The notes: generated from the letters alone by a model not told the origin. A stretch of DNA of 36,773 nucleotides from Acidobacteriota bacterium (GCA_016789625.1 JAEUQS010000494.1:1-36773); one strand, 5' to 3'; counted from the first letter of the stretch, positions 18,218 through 36,190 are shown. A program made the numbers and translations.

Positions 18218-18686
18218 TCACGCGGCCCCAGCCGCGCCACGCGAGGTCGCGCGTCTCCGTGTCCACGACGTCGATCACGACATTCGCCTCGTTGAGCTTC
18301 GTCACCGTCGTGTAGCCCGAGCGCCACCGGCCGTAGCGCCCGTACGCGTAGCCCCAGTGATCGACCTCGATGCGCTCTTTCGTCGTCACGTGGGCGGCGA
18401 CGCGGAAGTCGGGCTTGCCGCCCAGCTTCTCGACGAAGCCCTTGGCCGTGAGCTCGCGTCTCACGGCGTCCTCGATGCGTTTCATGGTGATGGGGCCGGC
18501 GCTCCGGCCGCGGTCGCGGTCGCGGTCGCGATCCCGGTCCCGCGAGGGGCGCTCCATGATGGAGAACGACTTCATCGCGCGGAAGTTCACGCCGGGGTCG
18601 TAGTCGGCGTCGACGACGATGCCCGAGCATCCGATCGTGCCGGCGAGCGTGGCCAGGAGGAGAAAGGAAAGCGCTCCACGTTTCAT
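18135..18686 (-). CDS. DUF4136-family lipoprotein with an internal (Arg-Asp)n repeat.
   Basis: MKRGALSFLLLATLAGTIGCSG (lipoprotein signal), GGAGG SD upstream, and a C-terminus ...ETVTKILAQFPPSRG typical of DUF4136. Contains SRDRDRDRDRDRGRS. Confidence 0.8.
   Translation of the reverse strand: MKRGALSFLLLATLAGTIGCSGIVVDADYDPGVNFRAMKSFSIMERPSRDRDRDRDRDRGRSAGPITMKRIEDAVRRELTAKGFVEKLGGKPDFRVAAHVTTKERIEVDHWGYAYGRYGRWRSGYTTVTKLNEANVVIDVVDTETRDLAWRGWGRVIIEPGERAGQLDETVTKILAQFPPSRG
18505..18546 (-). repeat. Imperfect hexanucleotide array (CGGTCG-like x ~6), coding (Arg-Asp)n.
   Basis: CGGCCG CGGTCG CGGTCG CGGTCG CGATCC CGGTCC, read directly. Encodes SRDRDRDRDRDRGRS in the DUF4136 lipoprotein. Confidence 0.85.
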
Positions 18687-18841
18687 CGGAGACCTCCAGA
18701 GGGAAGGACGCGCGGCCCGGGCGGGGAGGTTACCCGCCGCCTGCGCGCCGCTGCGGCAGAATGCCTGCGTCTTCGAACGGCCGTTTCTCCGCCGGGGATC
18801 GCGGGATCGAGAGACCCCGGGGAACGAATGCAGAGGTGCCC

Positions 18842-21037
18842 ATGTCCGACTTGACGGTCCAGAGTCTGGCCGATCTCCTGCTGCGCCTTCCCGACGAGCC
18901 GCTCGGGGCGGGCGCCGTGCCGAGCGCCCCGTTCGAGGCCGCGCTCGAGAAGACCGCGGTGCTCCTGGAACGCTCTCCGGGGCTCACGCTCACGGCCTCG
19001 CCTTCGATCTCGATATCGGTTTTCAATGCGCCGGAGGACCGCGACCCCGACGGCCTCGTCGAGAGCGCCGAAGGCAGGGCCACGCTCCGCTACGCGCTGA
19101 CCGGGCGCCTGCGCGGCCGCTCGGGGAAGTCCCTCGCGAGCGCCGGTTTCGCGCTTTCGGGCGAAGGTGTCGTGCGGCTCCTCCACGACGTCTCGCACGA
19201 CGGAAAGGAGCGCCTCAGGGCGGCCGTGGCGAAGGACCTCGCGAAGGGGCCGCGCCTCGCGCTGCTGCCGGGCCACGTGACGTCCCTCGCTCCCGGCGAG
19301 CGCGTCGCGCTCGTTTCCGACGGCGCGCTCCAGGCCGAGGTCACGCTCTCCTGGGCGAGCCTCCTCGCGACGGAGCTGCCCGCGCTCGCGGCCTCTTTCG
19401 GCGTCCTCGGTCCGCTCCTGGTCAAGGTCGAGGCCGGCGCGAAGCTCAGGGCACGCGTGAGGGCTCAGGAGGCTCTCCTCGTGGCGTTCGCGGGCCGGGA
19501 GGACGGCGAGGCCGGCGTCAGGGCGACGGTGCGGCTGACCGAACGGCGGGACGCGAAGACCGACGCCGGCGTCGAGGTGCAGATCGATCCCGACGCCGAG
19601 GACCTGAAGGCGCTGGCGAGCCTCGTGGGCGAGGCCTTCCTGGGGCGGCCCCTCGCGCTCGCGCGGGAGGTGCTCGACCGGGCCCGCGGCCGGAGCCTCG
19701 ACGACGAAACCCGCGAGGTGCTCGCGGACCTCCTGGCCCGGCTCGGCGGAGACGACGTCCTCGAAGGGCTCGCCGCGCTCGACGGCAAGCTCGAGGAGCT
19801 GCGGAAGGGTCTCTCGGCCGCCGTGGAGAAGGCCGCGAAGGCGCGCATCGGCCTCGCGTTCGCCTGGGAGCTGCGGCGCCTCCGCGAGACGGACGTGGTG
19901 CTCGAGGCGACGCTCTCGGACGAGGAGCTGGGCCGCTTCCACGGGGACCTCGTGCGCGGAAAGCTGGACGGCCTGCTCCGGGCGGCGCTCGCGGAAGGGA
20001 TCCCGGGCCCCCGCGTCACCCGGTGGCTGTCGACGAAGGCCGATACGACCGATACGAAGAGGGCGGTCTCGCTGAGCCTCGCTCCCTGGTTCGTGGCGCT
20101 CGGGACCGACACCGAGCGCGTGAGGTCCGTCGATCGGGCGGATCTCGCCGGGCGGAGGCGGGTCGCGTTCGAGGCCAGCCGGCGCTACGACGGGACTTTC
20201 GGCGGGGACCGCGCGAGCTGGGCCGTGCATCTCGCCGGCAGCTCCCGGAGCTTCCAGACGGACCCGCGTCTCGTGGACGCCGCGCTCTCTCTCTCGCTCG
20301 TGTGGGTCGCCGTCAGGGACAGCCCCTCGGGCGAGGAGACCCGGCTCGACCTCGACACCGCCATCCTCTGGGGCGCGCTGACGCCACAGAGCGCCGAGGA
20401 GCGCTCCCGGGCCGAGGACCGGACGGCTCCCGACCACAGAACGCTGCGGGTGGAGGTGCGCTTCGACGACCGCGCTCTCCGGGCCACGCTCCGAGGCCTG
20501 CGGGAGGAGCCCTCGGAGGAAGACGCCGGTGCTCTCGCCGCCGCGATGCCGTGGCTGGCCGCGAGCCCCTTCCGCCGGCACGTGGCGCTCCGGCGCACGG
20601 CCTACGCGCCGCTCTGGGGCTACCTGCTCAAGCATCCCCGCACCAGGCCGCAGGACCTGGCCCGCCTGGCGGCGTCCTACTTCCGCGAGAAGACCGACGC
20701 GCCCGAGCTGGCCCACGTGGAAGCGCTGTGGAAGGCCTCCCGGCCCTTCACGTTCGCCGGGCTCGCCGAGCTGAACGCAGACACGGCCGCCGCGCTCGCC
20801 TCGGCGCGCCGGGGGCTCGCGCGACTGGCTTTGGCCTGCGAGTCGAACGAGTCCTGGGACGGCGTGCTGCCCGAGGTGTGGGAGCTCCTCGAGAGGTTCT
20901 GCCGCCAGTCGCACCACGTGCGGGCCCTCGGCGCGCTCCTCCTCTCCCGCGCGCAGACGGCCGCGGTGAGGAAGGGCATCCTGCGCACCGCGACGTTCGA
21001 GCCGGGGGAGGGCGCGGCCCTCGTGGCGACGCGGTAG
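18842..21037 (+). CDS. Hypothetical cytoplasmic protein, 731 aa, no recognisable family.
   Basis: ATG at 18842 with an AGAGG SD ~8 nt upstream. The track start at 18761 adds an Arg/Gly-rich leader. Composition is protein-like. The N-terminal third has alternating beta-strand patterns (ISISVFN, ATLRYALTGRLRG, ALQAEVTLSWASLL, LLVKVEAGAKLRARVRAQEALLVAFAG, VRATVRLTERRD). The middle is helical. I saw no signal peptide, TM segment, P-loop or catalytic motif. Confidence 0.75.
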   Translation: MSDLTVQSLADLLLRLPDEPLGAGAVPSAPFEAALEKTAVLLERSPGLTLTASPSISISVFNAPEDRDPDGLVESAEGRATLRYALTGRLRGRSGKSLASAGFALSGEGVVRLLHDVSHDGKERLRAAVAKDLAKGPRLALLPGHVTSLAPGERVALVSDGALQAEVTLSWASLLATELPALAASFGVLGPLLVKVEAGAKLRARVRAQEALLVAFAGREDGEAGVRATVRLTERRDAKTDAGVEVQIDPDAEDLKALASLVGEAFLGRPLALAREVLDRARGRSLDDETREVLADLLARLGGDDVLEGLAALDGKLEELRKGLSAAVEKAAKARIGLAFAWELRRLRETDVVLEATLSDEELGRFHGDLVRGKLDGLLRAALAEGIPGPRVTRWLSTKADTTDTKRAVSLSLAPWFVALGTDTERVRSVDRADLAGRRRVAFEASRRYDGTFGGDRASWAVHLAGSSRSFQTDPRLVDAALSLSLVWVAVRDSPSGEETRLDLDTAILWGALTPQSAEERSRAEDRTAPDHRTLRVEVRFDDRALRATLRGLREEPSEEDAGALAAAMPWLAASPFRRHVALRRTAYAPLWGYLLKHPRTRPQDLARLAASYFREKTDAPELAHVEALWKASRPFTFAGLAELNADTAAALASARRGLARLALACESNESWDGVLPEVWELLERFCRQSHHVRALGALLLSRAQTAAVRKGILRTATFEPGEGAALVATR

Positions 21038-21045
21038 TCTCCCTC

Positions 21046-23661
21046 ATGCCGTTCACCTTCAACGGATTCGGAAGCCGGTACGCCGGCAGGAAGAACGTCA
21101 CGGCGCGGGCGGGCGTCTGTCCACAGTGCGGCCGCAAGACGACGCTTCAGTCCTACGACACGCGCGAGTTCGTCTGTGTCCTCTTCGTGCCCCTCGTCCC
21201 GCTGACGCGGTACCGCATTCTCGACGACTGTACCTCCTGCCGGCGCCATCACCGCGTGAAGCTCGCGGTCTTCGAGGAGCGGCTGAGCCGCGAGGCCGGG
21301 CCGCTGCGGGCCCGCGCGCGTGCCCGATCCACCGATCCGGCGGCCCACGCGGCGCTCGCCGCGAAGCTTCTCGAGCTGAGCCTCGCGGCCGAGGCGGAAG
21401 CGGCGGTCCACGAGGGGCTCCGGAGCGTTCCGGGAGACGGCCTCCTGAGCCGCTGGGCGGGCGAGCTCGCCATGGAGCGCGGGGACTTCGCCGGGGCGGT
21501 TCCCCACCTGCGGGTCGCCGCGGGCTCTCTGAAGGGCGACGCGCGCGCGCACCGGGCGCTCGGGCACGCTCTGCTCGTCTCGAAGCAGCCCTCCGAGGCG
21601 ACCGCGGCGCTGGAGGCGGCCCTCAGGATCGATCCCAACGATGTCGCCGCGCTGGACCTCGTCGCGGACGCGCATCGGGATTCCGGCAATCACTCGGCCG
21701 CTCTGTACGCCCTCGACGCGCTCACCGCCATCGCGCCGGCCCTCGCGACCGATCCCGGGATCCTGCGCCGCAAGAAGGCCTGCAAGGAGCATCTCGGGTT
21801 TCCGGTCACCGAGGACGAGCGCAAGGCCACGAGCCTCGCGGGGGGCGCGCGAGCGTGGCTCGCGAGGGAGACCGGCGGTTTCGGCCTCCGGCCCGTGCTC
21901 GTGGTCCTCGGCGTGGTCGCGGCCGGCGCGGTCGCGTTCCTGGGCGTCGCGGCCTGGAACCGCAGTCACATCACCGTGTACTTCGACAACGCGCTTGCGA
22001 AGGAAGTGACCGTGACCGCGGGCTCTCACAAGGTGGTCCTGCCTCCGGGCGAGAGGCGGATGAAGGAGCTGTCGCCCGGAACGTACACGTTCGTGGCGCG
22101 GGCCAACGGAAAGGAGCTCGAGCGGTTCGAAGGGGTCCTCGTGGCTCCGCCGCTCTCCCAGGCTTTCGACAAGCCTCCGTTCTACGTCTACGACGTGATG
22201 GAGGCCCGCATCTACGACCGCTACGCCGTGGTCTACCAGGCCAAGGACGCGCCGCCCCGGGACCCACCCAAGGCCGAGACCATCGCGTTTCGTCGCTTCT
22301 TCTCGCAGGCGGGCGTGGATTACGCGTTTCGGGAGGCTCCCGACGAGCTGAACATCGGCAAGGCCCGCGAGGCCACGCGGATCGTCTTCGACGCCAGCGA
22401 GAAGACCTTCAACACGGTGGCCGCGCGGCTCTGGGACGAGGGCAAGCCGAAGGAGTCGGAGAAGGCGGTCCACAAGGCCCTCGAGCTGGATCGCTGTGAC
22501 GCGCAGGCCTGGCGAAACCTCCTGCAGATCCTGGAGCTCGGCGAGCGCGAGGGCGAGGCGCCCGCCGTCGCGAAACGCTGGATCGAGACCTGCCCGAAGA
22601 GCGCGCTCGAGGCCCACTCGGCCTACCAGGACGCCCGGGTCTCGAACGACGAGGGGGCCCAGGTCGTGGCCGAGTACGCCGAGCTCGCCCGGAAAGAGCC
22701 CGGCAGCGCGCGGAATCACTATCTCTACGCCCGGGTGCTCCAGGATGCCGAGGCCGCGCTCCTCGAAGACCTCGAGGCGCTGCGGCTGGACCCCGGTTTT
22801 CTGCTGGCGCACGTCGCGGCGGGGAACGAGCTCTTGCGGATGGCGCGGCCGGCAGAGGCCTACGAGCACCTCAAGGCCGGCATCCCGGCCGACTGGTCTC
22901 AGGTTTGGGCGCTCACGCGGGGCGCCATCGCGGCCGGCAAGGCCGCCGAGGCTCTCACCGTCCTCGAGCCTGCCGCAAAACGCGAGGACGCCTCGATCGA
23001 TCGGGCGCGTTTCGATCTGAGCCTCGTGGCCGGGGATTTCCAGACGGCGCGGATGCTCCTCGGAAAGCTGGAAAAGTCCGTCAAGGAGGAGACCGCGGAG
23101 CTCCGCTCCCGGCGGATCGATCTCTTCCTCGCGGAGGGGAAGGCGGCGGAAGCCGACGCGCTTCTCGAGGCCACGCCCGCGCTGCCGAGGTTCGGGTTCT
23201 TCGTGCGGAGCACCCGGTTCCAGCGGCATCTCGAGGAGGGCCGCTTCGCCGAGGCGGCCGATTCGCTGACGCCCAAGGAGGGAGAGGCCCCGCTCCACAC
23301 GACGTACCGGATGCACGCCGCGGCCGCGCGCCTCGTGGCCGGACAAAAAACCCAGGCCGCGGCGGAGCTGTCGAAGCTCCTCCTCGCCTCCGAGGAGGAC
23401 GACGAGGAGGCGTATCTCTCGGAGGGTGATCGCGCGCTCGTCGAAGCGCTGCTCGGAAGGAAGAGTCCGGAGGCCGCCCTCCTCGTCTCCAAGGCCGAGG
23501 ACCCGGGGTTCCTGCCGCACGCGCACTGTCTTCTCGGGATGCGCGCTCTGGCCTCGGGCGATCGCGCGGCGGCCCGGACGAGCTTCGCGGAGGCCGTGCG
23601 GCTCAGCGGAGGCATCGGCTTCCCCGGAGGCTTCGCGCGCCGGAGGGTCGAGAGCCTCTGA
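21046..23661 (+). CDS. Zinc-ribbon + TPR + single-TM + periplasmic beta/TPR-like protein (871 aa).
   Basis: The ATG at 21046 is 8 nt after the upstream TAG. The N-terminus has a 4-Cys zinc ribbon: [10 protein letters not shown]...CPQCGRKTT...[25 protein letters not shown]-like helices include [25 protein letters not shown] helix: [24 protein letters not shown]. After the TM come a beta-rich segment and long TPR-like helical repeats. In the track it is embedded in the 1680-aa ORF 18619-23661, whose first ~800 aa are shadow. Confidence 0.8.
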
Positions 23662-27637: not shown

Positions 27638-29299
27638 TCACGGAATGCGCGTCGAGTAGGCCATCAGGTACGTGCCGTCGTCGAGCCGCACGACGGCCGG
27701 GTCCTTGAGCGCCGAGCTCTCCTTCCCCGTCGAGAGGTCGAGCGACAGTCGCCGCCCCGGATCGGCCGTCCAGCTCGTTCCGTTCGGCGAGAAGGCCGAG
27801 TTGATCCCCTGGGACTGTCCCGCGGGGGGCATGGCGTCGAAGGTGTAAAAGCGATAGCCGCCGGGTACCGCGACGCCGTTCGCGAAGATCTGTCCCACGC
27901 CGTCCTTCGGGACCACGACCTCGCCGTCGTACGTGAACGTGCGGCCGTCCACGGAGGTCGCGTGATGGTTCGAGCCGGGGATCCCGCCCGTGAAGAGATG
28001 CCAGACGCTGCCCACCTTCAGTGACGAGGGATCCAGCGCGACACCCCCGGCATAGGTGAACGCGACGCCCTTGTTCGTGAAGTGGATGCCGTCCGTTCCC
28101 TCGGCGACGTAGGACCGCGCGACGGTGTTCTGTCCGGCGGTGACGTAGAGCCGGAACGTGCCGTCGGGGAGGATCTGCACGTCCGGGTCGACGGGGTCGG
28201 CGAGGCCTTCGAAGCCCGACAGGACGACCTTTTTGTACACCCACGTGCGGCCTCTGTCGCGCGAGATGGCGACGACGGGCTTGTTCTTCTCGTTCCCCAC
28301 CGTCCAGCCGACGTAGTAGAGGTACACCCAGCCCCGGGCGTCCTGCACGAGCTCGGGCACGTCGGCCTGGTCGCTCACGACGATTCCGGTGCGGGTGAAC
28401 GCGAGGCCGTCCGGAGAGGTGGCCGTGACCAGGCGCGACACGCCCGGGCCCTCGCGCGCATCGCCCTCGCGGCCCTGGGGCGGATCGAAATCGCTCACGA
28501 GCGCCTCGCCCGCGATCCGTTCGGCCGCCTGGTAGCTTCCGTCCCCCGTGACGTTGTCGACGGGCGTGCCGTACAGGAAGAGCGAGCCCGTGAGCACCTC
28601 GGCCACGAGCACGTCTCCCGCGCGGACGTCCGCGCCCACGAAGGCCGCGGCGGTCTCCTGGAGGAAGCCGTTCGGCGGGAGCGTCTTCGTCGTCGTGGCG
28701 CGCACGAGGCCCCGCATGTCCCTGAGAGTGAGGGAAAGGGCCGTGGCCGACTCGCCCAACGTTCGTGCCCCGATGTTGAAGCGCAGGTTTCCGGTGCCCG
28801 GCACGAGCAGCACGGCGCGTTCTCCCGAAGACAGGGCTTCGGACGGTTTCACGACCGGCACCGAGAGACCCACCGTGCCGCCCGACGCGAGAGCCAGCGA
28901 GACGCGCGCGGAGAGGACGGGCAGGTCACCCTCCGTCGCCTTCACGTCGAGGCTGCCCGTGGCGGGGGAGAGCCGGAACTCGTCGCGCAGGAGGTCCTCG
29001 ATCGTCCGGACCTCTCCCGCGGCGAGGCGGAGCGTGATCTTCGGATCCGTGTCCTTCCCTTCGGCACCGGCGGGGTGGAACGTCAGCTCGACGGCGCTCG
29101 CGGCCTCGCTGCCGTTGTAGAGCGTGAGCGTGCTGCGCCAGGTGCCTCCGCCGAGGCCGGGCGCGCTCGCGACGGTGGGCACGATGCGGTCGGGCACGAT
29201 GCGGTCGGGCACGATGCGGTCGGGGGTGGCCGCGAGGCCGTTCGCGGCGAGGAGGAAGACGAACGGGCGGAGCCAGGACGACGGCGAGATCAGCTTCAT
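27638..29299 (-). CDS. Secreted two-domain protein, paralog 1: N-terminal beta-sandwich-like domain + C-terminal Asp-box (BNR-like) beta-propeller, glycosidase-like.
   Basis: ATG at 29299 with a GGAGG SD 5 nt upstream. The track start at 29389 is spurious. Signal peptide MKLISPSSWLRPFVFLLAANGLA, followed by PDRIV x3. The N-domain starts PTVASAPGLGGGTWRSTLTLYNGS. Propeller repeats: SPDGLAF, SRDRGRTW, GTDGIHF, SVDGRTF, SPNGTSW. Confidence 0.85.
   Translation of the reverse strand: MKLISPSSWLRPFVFLLAANGLAATPDRIVPDRIVPDRIVPTVASAPGLGGGTWRSTLTLYNGSEAASAVELTFHPAGAEGKDTDPKITLRLAAGEVRTIEDLLRDEFRLSPATGSLDVKATEGDLPVLSARVSLALASGGTVGLSVPVVKPSEALSSGERAVLLVPGTGNLRFNIGARTLGESATALSLTLRDMRGLVRATTTKTLPPNGFLQETAAAFVGADVRAGDVLVAEVLTGSLFLYGTPVDNVTGDGSYQAAERIAGEALVSDFDPPQGREGDAREGPGVSRLVTATSPDGLAFTRTGIVVSDQADVPELVQDARGWVYLYYVGWTVGNEKNKPVVAISRDRGRTWVYKKVVLSGFEGLADPVDPDVQILPDGTFRLYVTAGQNTVARSYVAEGTDGIHFTNKGVAFTYAGGVALDPSSLKVGSVWHLFTGGIPGSNHHATSVDGRTFTYDGEVVVPKDGVGQIFANGVAVPGGYRFYTFDAMPPAGQSQGINSAFSPNGTSWTADPGRRLSLDLSTGKESSALKDPAVVRLDDGTYLMAYSTRIP
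29177..29221 (-). repeat. Perfect 3 x 15-bp tandem repeat (GGGCACGATGCGGTC)3, coding PDRIV-PDRIV-PDRIV.
   Basis: Read directly. The repeat is in frame within paralog 1, immediately after the predicted signal peptide. Confidence 0.95.
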
Positions 29300-29345
29300 A
29301 CAACCTCCGTTGTGACGAAACCTCCATGACGTTCGCGGTCCGGTC

Positions 29346-29361
29346 CTTACACGAGTGTAAG
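29346..29361. promoter_or_regulatory. Perfect 16-bp palindrome CTTACAC-GA-GTGTAAG in the 116-nt divergent intergenic region between the two secreted paralogs. Candidate dimeric transcription-factor operator.
   Basis: Read directly: 7-bp perfect inverted arms with a 2-nt spacer, relatively AT-rich in a high-GC genome. It lies 46 nt from one ATG and 55 nt from the other. Confidence 0.45.
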
Positions 29362-29415
29362 AACCCGTGCGGAAGCGCCATGAAGGCAATAGACAAGGGA
29401 CTTCGAGGAGGAACG

Positions 29416-31014
29416 ATGCCCACGCTCCGCTCTCTGTGCGTCCTGCTCTTCTGGGCCGCGACAGCGCGCGGCGTCGAGACGCTCTCGTACATTCCGGCTG
29501 CTGCGCACGCGGAGGGTGCCGCGGGCTCGCTCTGGACCACCGAGGTCGCGCTCTTCAATCCGTCGCGGACCGGGGAGCGGCAGATCGGAATCCTCTTCCT
29601 GCCCCGGCTCGGACAGACGGCCCCCGCGGAGCTCGTGGTGCGCCTCGGCCCCCGTGAGGCAAGGACGCTGGCCGACGTCGTCGTGGCCCTCGGGACCTCG
29701 GGCGGCGGCGCGCTCCGCCTGCGGAGTGACGGCCCGATCGTGGCGTCCTCGCGGACGTTCAACACCGGCAGCCCGTCCTGCGGGACGTTTGGCACGGGCG
29801 TGCCCGCGATCCCGGAGTCCGCGGCGGTCACGGCGGGGGTGTTTCCTCCGCTTCGGGCGGCGCGCATCAACGTGGGACTGGTCTCGGTGAGGCCGAGCGG
29901 AACCACGCGGGCGCGGATCTCCCTCCGAAGCGAAAGCGGCACGATCTTGCTGCGCGAGGTCGCCGCGGACGTTCCGGCCCTCGGTTCGGTCCAGATCGAC
30001 GACGTGGTGCCTGGACTCTCGGCCGAGCCCGTCGTGATCGAGGTTTCGGCCGACGTTCCCGTTCTGGCGTGGGCGACCCCGATCGACGGAGCCTCGGGCG
30101 ACGGAACGTTCCTCCTCGCGACGCCCGACGGGCGGGACGACCAAGGCTGGGAGGCGCGCTTCCGGATTCCCGTCTCACAGGGCCTGACGTGGCGGGTCGA
30201 GGACGGCTTCCGCGCGACGCGGTCGGGCTTCACGTACGGCGTGCCGCGCGTGGTGGCGCTGCCGGACGGCCGCGTGAGGCTGTTCGCGCCCGCGATGGAC
30301 GGAATGCGGAGCGCGACGAGCACCGACGGCCTCACGTTCGTGGACGATCCGGGGACGCGCGGGCGCATGAGCGACGTGGCCGTCATCTACCTCGCGGGTG
30401 GTGGCTGGCGGTTCCTGTGGTCCGAGGGAACCCCGACGAGCCAGTTCCTGAAGAGCGCGGTGTCCACGGACGGACTGTCGTTCACCATGGAGCCGGGCGA
30501 GCGGATGCGGCCGGGGCCGCAGGACGCCGGGCTCATCCAGGTGCCGCACGCCGCGCGCCTCGCGGACGGCCGCTGGCGCCTCTACTACGTGGCCGACTGG
30601 CAGGGCACGGGCGGCAGCGTCAACCGCAACAACACCCGGACGGCGCTCTCGACCGACGAGGGCCTCACCTGGACCCTCGACGCCGGCAGCGAGGCGACCG
30701 GACGGGACACCGTGGATCCCGACGTCGTTCCGCTGGTGGGCGGCGGCTACCGGCTGTACTACAAGCAGGGCGATGCGTTTCGCGCCGCCGACAGTGCCGA
30801 CGGCAGGATCTTTCCGAATTCGGGAACCGCGGGCCGCCAGGTGCTCGACGCCCGGGAGCGCTACGACCCTACGATCATCAACTTCCCGGACGGCACGATC
30901 CGGATGTACTTCGGCACACCGGGGGGTATCGGCAGCGCAGTCGCGACAGATTCATTCAGCCCTCCGGGCCCGGAAACGCCTCCGGCGCGCTCATTGACCT
31001 CACCCCTTCCCTGA
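29416..31014 (+). CDS. Secreted two-domain protein, paralog 2: same architecture as 27638-29299.
   Basis: ATG at 29416 with a GAGGAGG SD upstream. Signal peptide MPTLRSLCVLLFWAATARG. The N-domain starts YIPAAAHAEGAAGSLWTTEVALFNPS. Propeller repeats: STDGLTF, STDGLSF, STDEGLTW, SADGRIF. The last ~20 aa are encoded by the 34-nt repeat element, and the gene overlaps the convergent gene by 15 nt. Confidence 0.85.
   Translation: MPTLRSLCVLLFWAATARGVETLSYIPAAAHAEGAAGSLWTTEVALFNPSRTGERQIGILFLPRLGQTAPAELVVRLGPREARTLADVVVALGTSGGGALRLRSDGPIVASSRTFNTGSPSCGTFGTGVPAIPESAAVTAGVFPPLRAARINVGLVSVRPSGTTRARISLRSESGTILLREVAADVPALGSVQIDDVVPGLSAEPVVIEVSADVPVLAWATPIDGASGDGTFLLATPDGRDDQGWEARFRIPVSQGLTWRVEDGFRATRSGFTYGVPRVVALPDGRVRLFAPAMDGMRSATSTDGLTFVDDPGTRGRMSDVAVIYLAGGGWRFLWSEGTPTSQFLKSAVSTDGLSFTMEPGERMRPGPQDAGLIQVPHAARLADGRWRLYYVADWQGTGGSVNRNNTRTALSTDEGLTWTLDAGSEATGRDTVDPDVVPLVGGGYRLYYKQGDAFRAADSADGRIFPNSGTAGRQVLDARERYDPTIINFPDGTIRMYFGTPGGIGSAVATDSFSPPGPETPPARSLTSPLP
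30955..30988. repeat. Copy B of the 34-nt repeated element (TTCAGCCCTCCGGGCCCGGAAACGCCTCCGGCGC).
   Basis: Same orientation as copy A. It lies directly 3' of the minus-strand DUF2461 gene stop (31000). On the plus strand it is read through as the last ~20 codons of paralog 2. Confidence 0.85.
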
Positions 31015-31725
31015 ACGAGCCGGCGCGAGCGCCGCGTCGAGCCAGGTGACGAACGGCGTCATGAGCTCGAACCGCTTCGCGATCTCGTTGGTCAGCGCGG
31101 ACGAGGTCGCGGTGGCCGGAGGCAGCACGGTCTTGAAGTAGACCTGGGTGTAGCCCAGCAGGTCGGCGGCCGGATGGTCCTTGGCGAAGCCGCGCGGCAC
31201 GCCTTTCAGTCGATCCCCCGACAGCTCACCCATGGCCGCGACCAGACGAGGGGCCTTCACGAGGGCGCGGAACTCGGCCGCGCGGTCGACGAACGCCGCG
31301 CGGAGCGCCGCGAGCTGGGGCGGACCCGGCATGTAGGCGCCGCCGATCACGGTGACGCCCCTGCCCGAGACGCCCACGTAGAAGCCCGCGACCTCCTGCT
31401 TCTCGAACCCGGCGAGCGAGAACACGGCGCCGACCTCGGTCTTGTAGGGCGATTTGTCGTTCGAGAAGCGCACGTCGCGGTTGAGCCGTGGAATCGCCTT
31501 CGCGGGATCCGGCACGCGGTACCGGGGTGCGATCGACGAAAGCCTCTCGTTGAGCGCCTCGACGAGCGCGATCGTGGGGGCCTTCACCGACTCCTCGTAG
31601 AGCTTCTTGCGCGGGTCGAACCAGGCCTTCTCGTTGTGGGCTTCGAGCCCGGAAAGGAACTCGAACGCTTCCTTCGAATAGCTCTTGAACGGCAATGGCG
31701 GCCTCCTCGATGCTGGAGGCCGCAT
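31000..31725 (-). CDS. DUF2461 (TIGR02453) family protein.
   Basis: Motifs: FSKEAFEFLSGLEAHNEKAWFDPRKKLYEESVKAP, RLNRDVRFSNDKSPYKT, GFYVGVSGRGVTVIGGAYMP. The outer ATG is at 31725. A TTG at 31695 preceded by GAGGAGG (6-nt spacer) gives MPFKSYSKEAFEFL, which fits the family N-terminus better. Confidence 0.85.
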   Translation of the reverse strand: MRPPASRRPPLPFKSYSKEAFEFLSGLEAHNEKAWFDPRKKLYEESVKAPTIALVEALNERLSSIAPRYRVPDPAKAIPRLNRDVRFSNDKSPYKTEVGAVFSLAGFEKQEVAGFYVGVSGRGVTVIGGAYMPGPPQLAALRAAFVDRAAEFRALVKAPRLVAAMGELSGDRLKGVPRGFAKDHPAADLLGYTQVYFKTVLPPATATSSALTNEIAKRFELMTPFVTWLDAALAPARSGKG

Positions 31726-31776: not shown

Positions 31777-34440
31777 TCAAAGTGGCTCGAATCGGCCCTG
31801 GAAGAAGCGGAGGGACGGCGGCTCGTAGACGAAGCGGAGACCGGTGATGGCCTCCCGCCGCTCGTAGAGGCGCGCGATGCCTTCGGCAACCGCCCTCATC
31901 TGCTCGTTCGAGTAGACGCGGCGCGGAATGGTGAGGCGCACGAGCTCCAGCGCGGGACGGTAGTTCTTCCCGTTCGGGTCGCGCCCCTTCGACACGTTGC
32001 CGCGCTCCATGACGCGGACGCCCGTCTCGAGGTAGATCTCGGCCGCGAGGCGCTGGGCCGGGTACTCGTCCTGGTCCACGTGCGGGAGAAAGCGCTTCAC
32101 GTCGATGAAGACGGCGTGGCTGCCCGTGGGCATCACCACCGGCACGCCCGCCTCGATGAGGCGCTCGGCGAGCCAGGCGGCCGGCTCCACGCGCGTACGG
32201 ATGTAGCGGTCGTCGAGCATCTCCTCGACTCCGCGTGCCATCGCGGCGAGATCGGCCGCGGGGAGGCCGCCGTCGCGCACGCCGCCCTCGTAGACGCGCA
32301 GCTTCTCCTCGGAGGCGCGGGCCCACGCGGCGTTGTCCTTGAACGCGAGGAGCCCGCCGATGTTGATGAGGAAGTCCTTCTTCCCCGAGACCGTGCAGCC
32401 GTCGCCGTGCGCCATCATCTCGCGCAGGATGTCGCGGATGTGCGTGCCGGCGTAGCGCGCGTCGCGCTTCTGGATCATGTAGGCGTTCTCCACGGCGCGG
32501 GTCGCGTCGAAGAGCACGGGGATTCCCTTGGGGCGACAGTACGCGTACACCTCGCGGAGGTTGTCCATGCTCACGGGCTGGCCGCCCGCCATGTTCACCG
32601 ACAGCTCGAACGAGAGGTACGCGATCTTCGCCGCGCCCTCGCGCCGAACCAGTGCGTCCAGCTTGTCGAGGTCCACGTTGCCCTTCCACGGGTACGCGCT
32701 CACGGGGTCGTGAGCCTCGTCGACGATGACGTCCACGAACGTGCCGCCCGCGAGCTCCTGGTGGATCTTCGTGGTGGTGAAGTACATGTTGCCCGGAACG
32801 TACTGTCCCGGCCGGATGAGCACCTCGCTCTGGATCTGCTCGGCCGCGCGGCCCTGGTGGGTGGGCAGGATGTACTCGTAGCCGTAGATGTCCTTCATGG
32901 CCGTGACGAACGCCACGTACGCGTCGCTCGTGGCCGGGGTCGCGCGGGCGCCGTCGTACGCGGCCCACTGGTCGGTGCTCATGGCCGTGGTGCCCGAGTC
33001 GGTCAGGAGGTCGATCGTCACGTCGGCCGAGCGCAGGAGGAACGTGTTCCAGCCGGCCTCGCGTATGGCCCGCTCGCGCTCCTCGCGGGTGGTGCGCGCG
33101 ATGGGCTCCGTGGTGTGGATGACGAACGGATAGCAGTCGAAGTCGTAGCTCGTGAGATCGGCGAACACCGAACGGAACTTCAGCTCGTCGTTCCACGTGC
33201 CGGCCACCTCGACGTCGAGCGGGGCCACCCGGCTCCGTTCCCCGTGCAGGCGGATGACGGCGTCGGCCACCTGGTCGAGCTGCCAGTTCGTCATCGCGAG
33301 CCGGGGGATCTGCAGAGGGAGCAGGTGGTCGCGTCCCGCGAGGCCGGCCACGGTCGCCCGCACGCCGCTCATCTGGTAGAGCGCGCACGCGAGCGCGTGC
33401 TCGGGGTTCGCGAGCACGTGGGGCAGGAAGAGATCGGCCTTCAGGTAGGCGCCGTCGCAGCCGCGCTCGAGCGGGATGCCGGAGGCGCGGAGCCGCTCGG
33501 TGAAGCGCTCCGTCTGGTGCATCACCCACTGCACCTCGGCCTCGTCGCACATCTCGGCGAGGCCGCGCGCGAGGACCTCCATGGTGCGTCCCGCCATGCC
33601 GCCGTACGTGTGGAGCCCCTCGTACACCACGACCTCGTTCATGAAGCGCTCGTGGAGGGCGGGGTTGTCGGTCGCGAGGAGGCCGCCGGTGTTGCTCTTG
33701 GCGTCCTGCGCGCCGTCGAGCAGGATGACGTGCGCGGTCTTGGCGATCTGCTTCACGAGGTCGGCGATGGAGCGCGTGCCCTGTCCGCTCTCGTGCCGCT
33801 TCATGTACCAGGCGTTCTCGATGACGCGCGAGACGTCGAGCACGAGATTCAGGCCGTGCCGGTCGGCGAGCGCCCGCACGCCGCGGAGGTTCGCGAGGCT
33901 GAACGGGTGCTGGCCGTCGGCGAACGCCTGCATCCCGATGATCGCGACCTTTCGCTCCGAGAGGAGCGCGTCGAGGAGCGTGAGGTCGACGTTGCCGGTG
34001 AAGAGGGGCTCGTTCGCGTCGCGCACGTCGGCGATCGCGATGCCGCGCGGCGCGTGGACGTCCACGCGGCCGCGGGCGTTGCTCGCGATGAGGGAGCCGC
34101 CCGGGGTCAACGTGGCGACGATGAGCTTCACGGCTCCCAGGCTGTTGTGCGTGGGGCACACGTACGTGTGGCCGAGCACCCGGGTCACCACGCTCACGAG
34201 CGTCTCGAAGTTGCGCGCGCCGGCGTAGGCCTCGTCGCCCACGAGCTGGCCCGCGATCTGCTCCTGGCTCATGGCGCTCGTGCCGTACGACGCCATGTCG
34301 AACGTGATCTGCGAGGGCGTGAGGTTGAACGGGTTGAAGTGCGCCCTGAGGAGGTTGCGCTTGCGCTCCTCAGGGCTCGGGAAGGCGATCAGGCGGACGG
34401 TCTTGATCTTGTGGGGCTCGTGAAGCGGAGCGTTGGCCAA
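31777..34440 (-). CDS. Head-to-tail fusion of two beta-eliminating lyase (tryptophanase / tyrosine phenol-lyase family) modules. The N-terminal module (aa 1-437, nt 33130-34440) is degenerate. The C-terminal module (aa 438-887, nt 31777-33129) keeps the PLP lysine.
   Basis: TTG start at 34440 with a GAGAGGA SD-like element upstream. The N-half has HEPHKIKTV, GDEAYAGARNF, LDVSRVIENAWYMKRHE, VYEGLHTYGGMAGRTMEVLARGL, LQIPRLAMT. The C-half has PFVIHTTEPIARTTREERERAIREAGWNTFLL, IDLLTDSGTTAMS, LPTHQGRAAEQ, WKGNVDLDKLDAL, NMAGGQPVS, FDATRAVENAYMIQKRD, SGKKDFLINIGGLL, RLTIPRRVYS, LRFVYEPPSLRFF. Both halves align end to end with E. coli TnaA as I remember it. Confidence 0.9.
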   Translation of the reverse strand: MANAPLHEPHKIKTVRLIAFPSPEERKRNLLRAHFNPFNLTPSQITFDMASYGTSAMSQEQIAGQLVGDEAYAGARNFETLVSVVTRVLGHTYVCPTHNSLGAVKLIVATLTPGGSLIASNARGRVDVHAPRGIAIADVRDANEPLFTGNVDLTLLDALLSERKVAIIGMQAFADGQHPFSLANLRGVRALADRHGLNLVLDVSRVIENAWYMKRHESGQGTRSIADLVKQIAKTAHVILLDGAQDAKSNTGGLLATDNPALHERFMNEVVVYEGLHTYGGMAGRTMEVLARGLAEMCDEAEVQWVMHQTERFTERLRASGIPLERGCDGAYLKADLFLPHVLANPEHALACALYQMSGVRATVAGLAGRDHLLPLQIPRLAMTNWQLDQVADAVIRLHGERSRVAPLDVEVAGTWNDELKFRSVFADLTSYDFDCYPFVIHTTEPIARTTREERERAIREAGWNTFLLRSADVTIDLLTDSGTTAMSTDQWAAYDGARATPATSDAYVAFVTAMKDIYGYEYILPTHQGRAAEQIQSEVLIRPGQYVPGNMYFTTTKIHQELAGGTFVDVIVDEAHDPVSAYPWKGNVDLDKLDALVRREGAAKIAYLSFELSVNMAGGQPVSMDNLREVYAYCRPKGIPVLFDATRAVENAYMIQKRDARYAGTHIRDILREMMAHGDGCTVSGKKDFLINIGGLLAFKDNAAWARASEEKLRVYEGGVRDGGLPAADLAAMARGVEEMLDDRYIRTRVEPAAWLAERLIEAGVPVVMPTGSHAVFIDVKRFLPHVDQDEYPAQRLAAEIYLETGVRVMERGNVSKGRDPNGKNYRPALELVRLTIPRRVYSNEQMRAVAEGIARLYERREAITGLRFVYEPPSLRFFQGRFEPL

Positions 34441-34499
34441 TGTCGGTCCTCTCGTCGTGTCGGTCGGCGCGATGGGGAGGTCTGGTCGTTCGGCTCCGC

Positions 34500-34960: not shown

Positions 34961-35109
34961 GTTCCCTCCCCGGAGACACCCGGTGCGGCTCCGCCCGTCT
35001 CGAGGCGGCGCCGTGCACCTGACTCCACCCCTCCAAGATGGCCCGGGGCTCCCGCCGCGTCATTGATGCAGAAGGCCTAGACTTGGAGCGGGAAAGGGGT
35101 CGCAAGACG

Positions 35110-35604
35110 ATGGCTACGAAGAAGAGCGCGAAGAAGAAAGCCCCGGCCAAGGCCAAACCGGCAGCCGCGAAGTCCAACGCGAAGAAGGCGGCCTCGCCGA
35201 AGCGGTCGGAGCCCGAATCCCTGCGGCTGCGGGCGGTTTCGCCGTCCTTCACCGTGAACGATCTCGAGGCGAGCCTGAAGTGGTACCGCGACGTGATGGG
35301 GTTCACGGAGGGAAAGCGCTACGACGACAAGGGCAAGCTCGTCGGTGTGGAGCTCCTTGCAGGGGAAGCCTTCTTCATGCTGGGGCAGGACGACTGGAAG
35401 AAGGGGAAGAACCGCGCGAAGGGCGAGGGCATGAGGCTCTACTGCATGACCGTGCAGGACGTCGACGTGCTGGCTGCCGAGATCCGGGCCCGTGGCGGAA
35501 AGCTCGATCAGCCGCCCACGGACCAGCCGTGGGGTATGCGCGATTTCTCCGTCACGGATCCCGACGGCTTCAAGATCACGATCGCCCGGGAGCTCGGGAA
35601 GTAA
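35110..35604 (+). CDS. VOC-family (glyoxalase/bleomycin-resistance fold) protein with an N-terminal Lys/Ala-rich histone-H1-like tail.
   Basis: MATKKSAKKKAPAKAKPAAAKSNAKKAASPKR, followed by LRAVSPSFTVNDLEASLKWYRDVMGF...MRLYCMTVQDVDVLAAEIRARGGKL...QPWGMRDFSVTDPDGFKITIA (VOC fold). An alternative upstream ATG at 35038 has no SD. Confidence 0.8.
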   Translation: MATKKSAKKKAPAKAKPAAAKSNAKKAASPKRSEPESLRLRAVSPSFTVNDLEASLKWYRDVMGFTEGKRYDDKGKLVGVELLAGEAFFMLGQDDWKKGKNRAKGEGMRLYCMTVQDVDVLAAEIRARGGKLDQPPTDQPWGMRDFSVTDPDGFKITIARELGK

Positions 35605-35608
35605 GGCG

Positions 35609-36190
35609 ATGTCCGCAGGGCCCGATTTCGCGGTCGCGTTTCGGGCCCTGGAGAGCCTCGTCGAGAGCCAGCCCGACGGTGTGACGGGCGAGATCGCGCG
35701 CGGTGTGTTCGCGATGTCGCCGCGGGCGCGGCCACGACACAGCTTCAGCCTGGGCGAGCTGTACCACCACCTACGGAACCGATTCGGCGACTCCTCCCCG
35801 GGAACGCCCCCGGATTGGCTCTTTCTGGTGGACCCGGAGACCCGTTCCGAGGCGGCCTACTCTCGGCTCGTTCCCGATGTGGCCGGCTGGCGGAAGTCCA
35901 CGACGGGATGGCCCACGCCCGACGACCCGCTGATCGAGCTCATGCCCGAGTGGGTGGCCGAGGTCCTGTCTCCGGGGACGCGCGCTTTCGATGAGGGGCC
36001 CAAGAAAGACGCGTACGGCCTGATGGGCGTGGGCTGGCTCTGGCTCGTGGATACCGAGGCGAAGCGGATCGAGGTGCTCGAGAACGTGCGCGGCAAGATG
36101 CTGCCGAGGGCGTCCGTGGAGTCGGGCGCCCTCGTCGCACCGCCGTTCGGCGTCGTGGGCGTGGACCTCGCGAAACTGTTCTGGGCCTGA
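35609..36190 (+). CDS. Uma2-family (DUF820) putative PD-(D/E)xK endonuclease.
   Basis: VPDVAGW...PEWVAEVLSPGTRAFDEGPKKDAYGLMGVGWLWLVDTEAKRIEVLE matches the Uma2 core (PD...E.lS......D...K...Y...Gv.eyW.vD). The ATG at 35609 is 4 nt after the upstream stop. The track start at 35492 overlaps the upstream gene. Confidence 0.8.
   Translation: MSAGPDFAVAFRALESLVESQPDGVTGEIARGVFAMSPRARPRHSFSLGELYHHLRNRFGDSSPGTPPDWLFLVDPETRSEAAYSRLVPDVAGWRKSTTGWPTPDDPLIELMPEWVAEVLSPGTRAFDEGPKKDAYGLMGVGWLWLVDTEAKRIEVLENVRGKMLPRASVESGALVAPPFGVVGVDLAKLFWA

Follow-up and report, generated by a model that had tools for sequence, protein, structure and literature searches.

Tyrosine phenol-lyase (TPL; EC 4.1.99.2) and tryptophanase (TnaA; EC 4.1.99.1) are textbook enzymes dependent on pyridoxal 5'-phosphate (PLP), with importance for biocatalysis (L-DOPA) and for the production of phenol and indole in the gut. 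To our knowledge, every description of the two enzymes is of a homotetramer whose four composite sites are equivalent. TPL converts L-tyrosine into phenol, pyruvate and NH3 and is activated by K+/NH4+. In canonical TPL, represented by the Tpl proteins of Citrobacter freundii and Erwinia herbicola (PDB 2EZ1, 1C7G), the tetramer is built of identical subunits of ~51 kDa; each subunit binds PLP and donates Tyr71 and Tyr291, which gives four sites. A stretch of 36,773 nucleotides from an Acidobacteriota bacterium (GCA_016789625.1, JAEUQS010000494.1:1-36773; hereafter the window) was analysed here. On its minus strand (31777..34440) it carries a gene for an 887-amino-acid (aa) tandem fusion of two TPL-like beta-eliminating lyases, and the active-site residues of TPL are divided between the two modules. 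Compared with TPL, one module of the fusion would only donate and the other only accept, with one site per two modules.

The C-terminal module (C-module) is ~50% identical to TPL over the full length and has all catalytic and specificity residues acting in cis in common with it. The N-terminal module (N-module) shares with TPL the trans-acting loops GDEAYAG and YEGxxxYGGxAGR. With tryptophanase the fusion has the Pfam family, the fold, the trans-acting tyrosines and the non-catalytic interface of the N-terminal arm (N-arm) in common. It differs in the pocket of the C-module, which is of TPL type (Thr, Met, Arg, Phe) and not of the type Asp137, Val394, Ile396 and His463. In the following, cis refers to residues used inside the PLP-binding subunit and trans to residues lent to the partner subunit. 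Tyr74 and Tyr307 of TnaA form hydrogen bonds to the PLP phosphate of the adjacent subunit (PMC2770544), and Tyr-72* of tryptophanase was likewise described as trans-acting (PMC11301627). As Phe304 of TnaA is the equivalent of Met288 of TPL (PMC5805759), Tyr307 of TnaA corresponds to Tyr291 of TPL. Residue 288 of TPL presumably acts in trans as well, since it is located 3 residues ahead of the trans-acting Tyr291 (Tyr307 in TnaA). The Citrobacter TPL numbering used for comparison was rebuilt from alignments and verified at 25 canonical positions.

From reading of the open reading frame (ORF), Pfam and alignments, the gene was found to start with TTG. A Shine-Dalgarno-like motif read off the sequence, GAGAGGA (34447..34453, minus strand), ends 6 nt upstream of this codon, and the N-terminus of the lyase agrees with the consensus MxxxxPxHEPHKIKTV of the homologues. 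By alignment with TPL, the N-module (aa 1-431; 33148..34440, minus strand) was assigned as a catalytically dead 'donor' pseudo-lyase on the basis of its residue losses, and the C-module (aa 432-887 and stop codon; 31777..33147, minus strand) as a complete TPL-type catalytic module without trans residues of its own. Residues 434-885 of the fusion align end to end with residues 3-454 of TPL 1c7g (E=8e-152), and for residues 8-404 the matching part of TPL is 6-433 (E~1e-59). Pfam Beta_elim_lyase (PF01212) matched the whole protein in two stretches with 302 bits, reaching the gathering score, and the N-half alone was matched with 87 bits (cutoff 27, E=1.6e-24). The two modules of the 97-kDa chain are 28% identical to each other.

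Thus, the two beta-eliminating-lyase modules in one ORF that had been proposed in a first-pass annotation of this DNA were recovered by Pfam and by alignment of both halves with TPL, and all codon coordinates given there were correct. The ~8-aa linker assumed between the modules, however, is not a spacer. At the junction (aa 424-438; 33127..33171, minus strand), examined by alignment, DNA reading and an AlphaFold2 (AF2) model, the native C-terminal tail of the N-module runs directly into the native N-terminal arm of the C-module. The N-half up to T430 corresponds to the C-terminus of TPL and Y432-Y437 to TPL residues 1-6, leaving ~1 extra residue (S431). The junction residues F434, D435, C436 and P438 are conserved in at least 90% of the homologues. 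As expected in the first-pass annotation, the DNA near 33130 is in frame and stop-free, and the same fused ORF, uninterrupted and with a length of ~890 aa, was present in more than 120 protein clusters from independent assemblies.

For the comparison of the active sites, 26 positions of TPL were tabulated across 120 full-length homologues with 70-91% identity. All 21 cis residues of Citrobacter TPL were found in the C-module, and each of them was invariant in 120/120 homologues. They comprise F36, T49, S51, G52, Q98, G99, R100, F123, T124, N185 and D214 as well as R217, S254, K256, K257, N262, M379, R381, R404, F448 and F449 (TPL numbering). The C-module thereby holds the core of TPL, which consists of Lys257, Asp214 contacting the pyridine nitrogen, Arg404 at the carboxylate site, and Q98-G99-R100 together with S254 at the phosphate site. 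The Schiff-base lysine, Lys688 (TPL Lys257), lies in the motif SGKKD (codon 32377..32379, on the minus strand like all further codons of the fusion), and the PLP-phosphate motif is Q529-G530-R531 (32848..32856; 120/120). Residues determining specificity are conserved to the same degree (120/120 each): Thr555 (32776..32778) corresponds to TPL Thr124, the ligand of the phenolic hydroxyl group, which is Asp in tryptophanase and serves as a discriminator (PMC5805759); M811-E812-R813 (32002..32010) to Met379-Glu380-Arg381 with the TPL-specific base and specificity residues; and F879-F880 (31801..31806) to the substrate-strain residues Phe448-Phe449, with His in tryptophanase. The trans columns of the C-module are degenerate in the 120 homologues: Glu69 is replaced by A/P, Tyr71 by P/S/A, Met288 by Gly and Tyr291 by Asp. 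At the Tyr71 column the fusion has Pro502 (32935..32937), by which the general acid is lost; Pro occurred 97 times in the homologues, Ser 13, Ala 7, Thr 2 and Val 1 times, and Tyr never. The second trans loop is lost as well, with G720-V-R-D723 (32272..32283) in place of M288-P-S-Y291.

In the N-module, the trans loops are kept and the cofactor site is lost. Trans loop 1, GQLVGDEAYAGARNF (aa 64-78; 34207..34251), contains Glu70 and Tyr72, equivalent to Glu69 and Tyr71 of TPL (both in 119/119). Trans loop 2, VVVYEGLHTYGGMAGRTMEVLARG (aa 271-293; 33562..33630), contains Leu276 and Tyr279, equivalent to Met288 and Tyr291 (both in 120/120). The segment with EGLHTYGGMAGRTME ranked first among the conserved windows of the N-module (0.98) and the GQLVGDEAYAGARNF segment second (0.95), and both hold trans residues. 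The losses in the 120 homologues are Q98N, G99S/L/T, R100L, T124A, S254D, K256A, K257Q and R404P; R381 is variable, and the columns of Phe123 and Asn185 are deleted. Hence, N99-S100-L101 (34138..34146) is found in place of the phosphate motif Q98-G99-R100, and D242-G-A244-Q245 occupies the columns of S254-G-K256-K257, with Gln245 (33706..33708) at the position of the Schiff-base lysine in 120/120 homologues. With these replacements no Schiff base could be formed in the N-module, and binding of PLP is very probably impossible.

The residue assignments proposed at first for both halves agreed with the TPL alignment. In the C-half, Q529-G-R531, D645, R648, S685, K687 and K688 are kept and Pro502 stands at the Tyr71 column, without any C-half Tyr at this position; in the N-half, Tyr72 occupies the Tyr71 column, N99-S-L replaces QGR and Gln245 the Lys. 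The reciprocal nature of the losses was borne out by the 120 homologues and by the 11 distant lineages described below, and it extends further than first noticed, since the second tyrosine (Tyr279 in the N-half, Asp723 in the C-half) is included. Conservation of the K-to-Q and Y-to-P pattern in orthologs had been proposed as a check; Gln was found in 120/120 and Tyr never, but Pro in only 97/120.

Relatives of the N-module were detected in at least 210 species-representative genomes. Genome loci were counted for the best 80 of the 210 relatives; all 80 belong to metagenome-assembled genomes, and the full-length fused ORF was present at 75 of them. The hosts, uncultured bacteria of soil and water, are Acidobacteriota (Holophagales with the best match of 96%, probably the lineage of the window, Thermoanaerobaculia and Vicinamibacteria) and, outside of this phylum, Eisenbacteria, Gemmatimonadota, Myxococcota, Planctomycetota and Xanthomonadales (Thermomonas, Dokdonella). 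Purifying selection acts on both modules, with dN/dS values of 0.14-0.31 (N-module) and 0.06-0.22 (C-module). The mean pairwise identity amounts to 70% and 78%, respectively, and 84 positions of the N-module are invariant. Unfused N-modules, which could point to a two-gene ancestor, were looked for, but the five apparent stand-alone genes (P0121, P0122, P0123, P0127 and P0139) were rejected as such, because their sequence continues into the C-module, intact or frameshifted, and they are thus truncated fusions. In public databases the homologues are named 'tyrosine phenol-lyase' (JGI) or 'tryptophanase' (NCBI/nr).

An exhaustive phmmer search with the N-half as query against 1.84 billion cluster representatives revealed 11 more double-module lineages with lengths of 847-928 aa, whose N-modules are only 28-39% identical to that of the fusion; the arrangement is an ancient one. 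Counted together with the fusion itself, the trans quartet (E69, Y71, L/M288, Y291) is retained in 12/12 N-modules. In 12/12 C-modules the cis set is essentially whole and the Tyr291 column is not Tyr. The order of the modules is constant across the lineages, with the pseudo-module N-terminal and the catalytic module C-terminal. In single-module relatives, the cis and trans sets are almost always both present. Tyr71 of the C-module was retained only where the N-module has Lys257 (three of five lineages versus none of seven, a small count in which kinship is ignored); such an association is predicted by reciprocal pairing across the catalytic interface. P0126, P0130 and P0136 have N-modules with the full PLP-binding set including Lys257, and in two of the three the C-module has Tyr71 too. 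These proteins may represent less degenerate, possibly two-site intermediates. The pocket residues of their C-modules are not those of TPL (F124/W381, K381/A448 and I124/A448), which hints at other substrates. Other double-module subfamilies in general differ in the pocket (for example Phe124/Trp381 or Lys381/Ala448) and probably have other specificities. The other subfamilies also have 10-16 extra residues at the junction. In a neighbor-joining tree, which is a rough one only, the topologies of N- and C-modules were congruent, indicating co-evolution of the halves since the fusion, and the C-modules of the present group nested with canonical TPL. Apart from the double-module proteins, a single TPL-like module was observed inside very large multidomain proteins (P0158, 3002 aa; P0187, 1552 aa; P0199, 805 aa). 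These are probably TPL-like (SH/thiocysteine-lyase) domains embedded in polyketide synthases (PKS) or nonribosomal peptide synthetases, as in PMC3870968 and PDB 9cen.

The reading favoured here, to which we assign a probability of about 0.72, is that an N-module completes the active site of a C-module in a TPL-type lyase. The C-module would bind PLP via Lys688 and supply every cis residue. Two loops of the N-module, Glu70/Tyr72 and Leu276/Tyr279, would be inserted into the partner site. Tyr72 would serve as the general acid protonating the leaving ring carbon, and the Leu276/Tyr279 loop would contribute to the substrate pocket and provide a hydrogen bond to the PLP phosphate. By pairing of N- and C-module (N:C) across the canonical catalytic-dimer interface, one site with one PLP per 97-kDa chain would result; 1 PLP per chain would be expected whether the pairing takes place within a chain or between chains. 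We infer this N:C pairing, and likewise the substrate and the quaternary structure discussed in the following.

The AF2 model calculated with a 104-sequence alignment reached a mean predicted local distance difference test (pLDDT) of 83.8 and a predicted template modelling score (pTM) of 0.81. A single-sequence run was discarded as unusable (pLDDT 36.5, pTM 0.27). A pTM of 0.81 is too high for two floating modules, and hence a defined arrangement of the modules is predicted. In a Foldseek comparison of the model with the PDB, each of the 50 matches listed was one chain of TPL, of TnaA or of an SH domain and extended over one module, with a TMt of 0.87-0.89 for the C-module against TPL chains; Foldseek superposes one module at a time and is silent on the packing between modules. 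The strands of both N-arms (11-17 and 439-445) were predicted as 7-residue beta-strands, and pLDDT was about 87-93 over the junction residues 421-440. The lowest confidence was obtained for the trans loops of the N-module (61-80, 271-280) and for the acceptor region 441-490 of the C-module. In TnaA, residues 12-17 of the N-arm lie at the non-catalytic interface (PMC2770544), which E9, R12 and R14 of the N-arm share with residues 426-433 of the small domain. With antiparallel pairing of the N-arms, the N-terminus of a subunit would point to the small domain of its non-catalytic partner, which holds the C-terminus of that partner. Therefore, a nearly seamless C-to-N fusion is easiest across the non-catalytic interface. 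On this modelling we lean somewhat towards a covalent link that spans the non-catalytic N-arm (D1D3-D1D3) interface rather than the catalytic one. Assembly of two chains would in this case yield a pseudo-tetramer with two sites, in each of which the C-module comes from one chain and the N-module from its partner chain.

Regarding the reaction, TPL and tryptophanase are discriminated by T124/M288/M379/R381/F448 versus D137/F304/V394/I396/H463 (PMC5805759). The C-module carries the TPL residues Thr124, Met379, Arg381 and Phe448 as T555, M811, R813 and F879 (120/120 each). At the remaining discriminator, Met288, the C-module has Gly720 and the donor loop of the N-module Leu276. The TPL equivalog TIGR02618 scored 603.5 bits with the C-module and 244.9 bits with the N-module, both below its cutoff of 720.7. 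With the tryptophanase equivalogs NF053783 and TIGR02617 the C-module scored 429.5 and 402.7 bits, far below the cutoffs of 750 and 825.8, in keeping with Thr, Arg and Phe in its pocket. The 'tryptophanase' subfamily model NF009709, which includes TPL and TnaA (cutoff 285), was passed by the C-module (537.4) and narrowly missed by the N-module (275.3). The whole protein exceeded the TIGR02618 cutoff (843 > 720.7), but this was rejected as proof of a TPL, as the scores of two modules are summed. Since the C-module alone stays below the cutoff, the fusion was not filed as a proven TPL equivalog. The substrate had been left open in the first-pass annotation; the discriminator residues, together with the higher score of the TPL equivalog compared with the tryptophanase ones, point to L-tyrosine. 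The most likely reaction would be a beta-elimination in which L-tyrosine, or a phenolic compound closely resembling it, is cleaved to phenol, pyruvate and NH4+.

Several observations weigh against the composite site as proposed, in addition to the small number of lineages, the rough tree and the silence of Foldseek on module packing. Only in this subfamily has the C-module lost Glu69, which presumably acts in trans in the K+ site of TPL; other lineages hold E or D. The donor loop has Leu in place of Met288 in 120/120 homologues, albeit a conservative change. Because the C-module alone lies below the TIGR02618 cutoff, the substrate could differ from L-tyrosine. Furthermore, equivalents of Asp214 and Arg217 are retained in the N-module, and N99, D202, S204, R205, D242 and Q245 of its pocket are invariant within the subfamily. 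The N-module pocket may thus have a function of its own, as indicated by N99, D242 and Q245 and by the retained Asp214/Arg217 equivalents. A rather speculative and unlikely extension of the composite-site reading would be a vestigial pocket that binds an effector and thereby positions the Tyr72/Tyr279 loops, so that the protein is an allosterically gated single-chain TPL with sites formed only upon assembly of two chains. If this were true, the family would record the stepwise change of a symmetric homo-oligomer into an asymmetric pair of catalytic and regulatory modules.

The complementarity of residues applies equally to a site within one chain, in which the halves of a single polypeptide pack as the catalytic dimer and a further dimerisation by the N-arms is optional. 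We consider this possible, though doubtful. No other interface in fold-type-I enzymes is as large as that of the catalytic dimer, and in the glycine decarboxylase P-protein (GLDC) a single chain comprises two fold-type-I halves, which pack as an intrachain pseudo-dimer around a single site. The pTM of 0.81 also argues for a confident inter-module arrangement of some kind, and the longer junctions of other subfamilies could permit a re-routing of the chain. In the present subfamily, however, only ~1 residue is added at the junction, and both N-arms retain the EPxKIKTV/PFVIHT strand, which forms the non-catalytic inter-subunit sheet in TnaA. The low AF2 confidence for the donor loops and the acceptor region around T49-G52 would also be unexpected if these parts were packed in cis. 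Considerably less probable are catalytic dimers of two C-modules (C:C) without a general-acid tyrosine, the N-module being a structural or regulatory appendage. Such dimers could eliminate or replace good leaving groups, with Ser, Cys or S-alkyl-Cys as substrates, or they could catalyze a different reaction. Tyr71 and Arg381 were reported to be dispensable for some substrates of this family (PMC3870968), and PKS-embedded TPL-like domains lack both residues; the score of the C-module under the TPL equivalog cutoff and the invariant N99, D202, R205, D242 and Q245 in the N-module pocket would fit as well. The C:C arrangement does not account for the invariance of precisely the four trans residues, which make up the two most conserved segments of the N-module and are kept in 12/12 double-module lineages, nor for the loss from the C-module of Tyr291, a ligand of the PLP phosphate needed for any substrate. 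The invariant tyrosine-specific residues Thr124, Arg381, Phe448 and Phe449 would also make little sense without a proton donor for C-C cleavage. The higher divergence of the N-module in identity (70% versus 78%) and dN/dS and its score just under the NF009709 cutoff might suggest an annotation or assembly artefact, or a decaying pseudogene remnant without function. This can practically be dismissed, as the fused ORF occurs in more than 120 protein clusters and at 75/80 loci, the N-module has a dN/dS of 0.14-0.31 with 84 invariant positions, and the apparent lone N-halves are broken fusions.

At 18 of the 80 loci, from Acidobacteriota and Xanthomonadales, a divergently transcribed regulator of the Lrp/AsnC family (~170 aa) is encoded ~100-950 bp upstream of the fused gene (loci L009-L015, L019, L021, L024, L026, L028, L032, L034, L035, L041, L043 and L076). 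In part of the family the gene thus appears to be under the control of an adjacent Lrp/AsnC-type amino-acid regulator, which fits an enzyme of amino-acid catabolism. The regulator is not present in the window itself. Beyond Lrp/AsnC, no conserved operon partner was found in the 80 loci, and no transporter, phenol-degradation genes or biosynthetic cluster.

In the window, a DUF2461 protein (31000-31725, minus strand; E=1.4e-56) is encoded on the same strand as the lyase, 51 bp past its stop codon, and a small membrane ORF is located upstream of the lyase. Neither the DUF2461 gene nor the membrane ORF is conserved beside the lyase in other lineages (80 loci). On the plus strand, past the other end of the lyase gene, a putative endonuclease of the Uma2 family (35492-36190) and a glyoxalase/VOC-family protein extended at its N-terminus by a Lys/Ala-rich stretch (35038-35604) were identified. 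Two divergently oriented ORFs of ~550-580 aa (27638-29389, minus strand; 29326-31014, plus strand) had no Pfam match; with 24% identity to one another across ~550 aa (E=9e-8), they are distant paralogues. Each has an apparent N-terminus resembling a signal peptide and an apparent N-terminal beta-rich domain, followed by propeller-like repeats of the type 'S/T-x-DG-x-x-F/W'; in the ORF at 27638-29389, PDRIV is repeated three times in tandem close to the N-terminus. A 1680-aa ORF (18619-23661, plus strand) appeared in the mechanical ORF list; it lies in DNA of 70% GC and may or may not be a real gene.

If the composite site is correct, the fusion represents a natural complementation experiment, in which the cis and trans halves of the site were split onto separate modules by evolution. 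The trans-acting residues of the family (Tyr71, Tyr291 and the 288 loop) would be marked independently in this way, and an enzyme with half the usual number of sites would be viable and widespread. The graded subfamilies offer a tractable system for the transition from a homo-oligomer to a pair of enzyme and pseudoenzyme, in parallel to GLDC and to the LCB1/LCB2 pair of serine palmitoyltransferase. For databases, it is of importance that automated annotation names the fusions plainly 'tryptophanase' or 'tyrosine phenol-lyase' and that enzyme-mining filters of 400-600 aa drop double-module proteins.

In the literature searched, including a survey of tnaA diversity and a tryptophanase mining study, no TPL or tryptophanase with two modules was found to be described; the mining study discarded sequences outside 400-600 aa. 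The first impression that no example had been described therefore holds for beta-eliminating lyases in the literature searched, but not for the architecture, which has precedents in GLDC and LCB1/LCB2. In eukaryotic serine palmitoyltransferase, LCB1 does not bind PLP and is obligatory for the PLP-binding LCB2 (PMC5519370). The likeness to the fusion lies in a fold-type-I PLP enzyme with an obligatory non-binding paralogue. The difference is that LCB1 and LCB2 belong to the alpha-oxoamine synthase family and are separate, membrane-bound subunits in cells. A single-chain LCB2-LCB1 fusion occurs in coccolithovirus.

The closest parallel in architecture is the single-chain glycine decarboxylase P-protein (GLDC/GcvP) with ~950-1000 aa, which consists of two fold-type-I halves with the pseudo half first, as in the fusion. 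Of its two halves, only the C-terminal one bears the PLP lysine; in the N-terminal half this position is taken by Gln (PMC7259800), an exact parallel to Gln245 of the fusion. Thus, the fusion shares the architectural class of GLDC, with two fold-type-I halves in one chain and the PLP lysine in one of them. The two systems differ in family, as GLDC represents an unrelated family of fold type I and is missing from the top 50 Foldseek matches, and in chemistry, which is a decarboxylation with transfer to the lipoamide of the H-protein. They also differ in history: the duplication in GLDC is ancient and universal, whereas the fused lyase occurs alongside single-module TPL and TnaA, both abundant, and alongside two-Lys intermediates. 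Within the literature searched, the fusion is the first of its kind among beta-eliminating lyases, with an architecture that is itself precedented. It is distinguished from the known systems by the clean partition of cis and trans residues and by its surviving intermediates.

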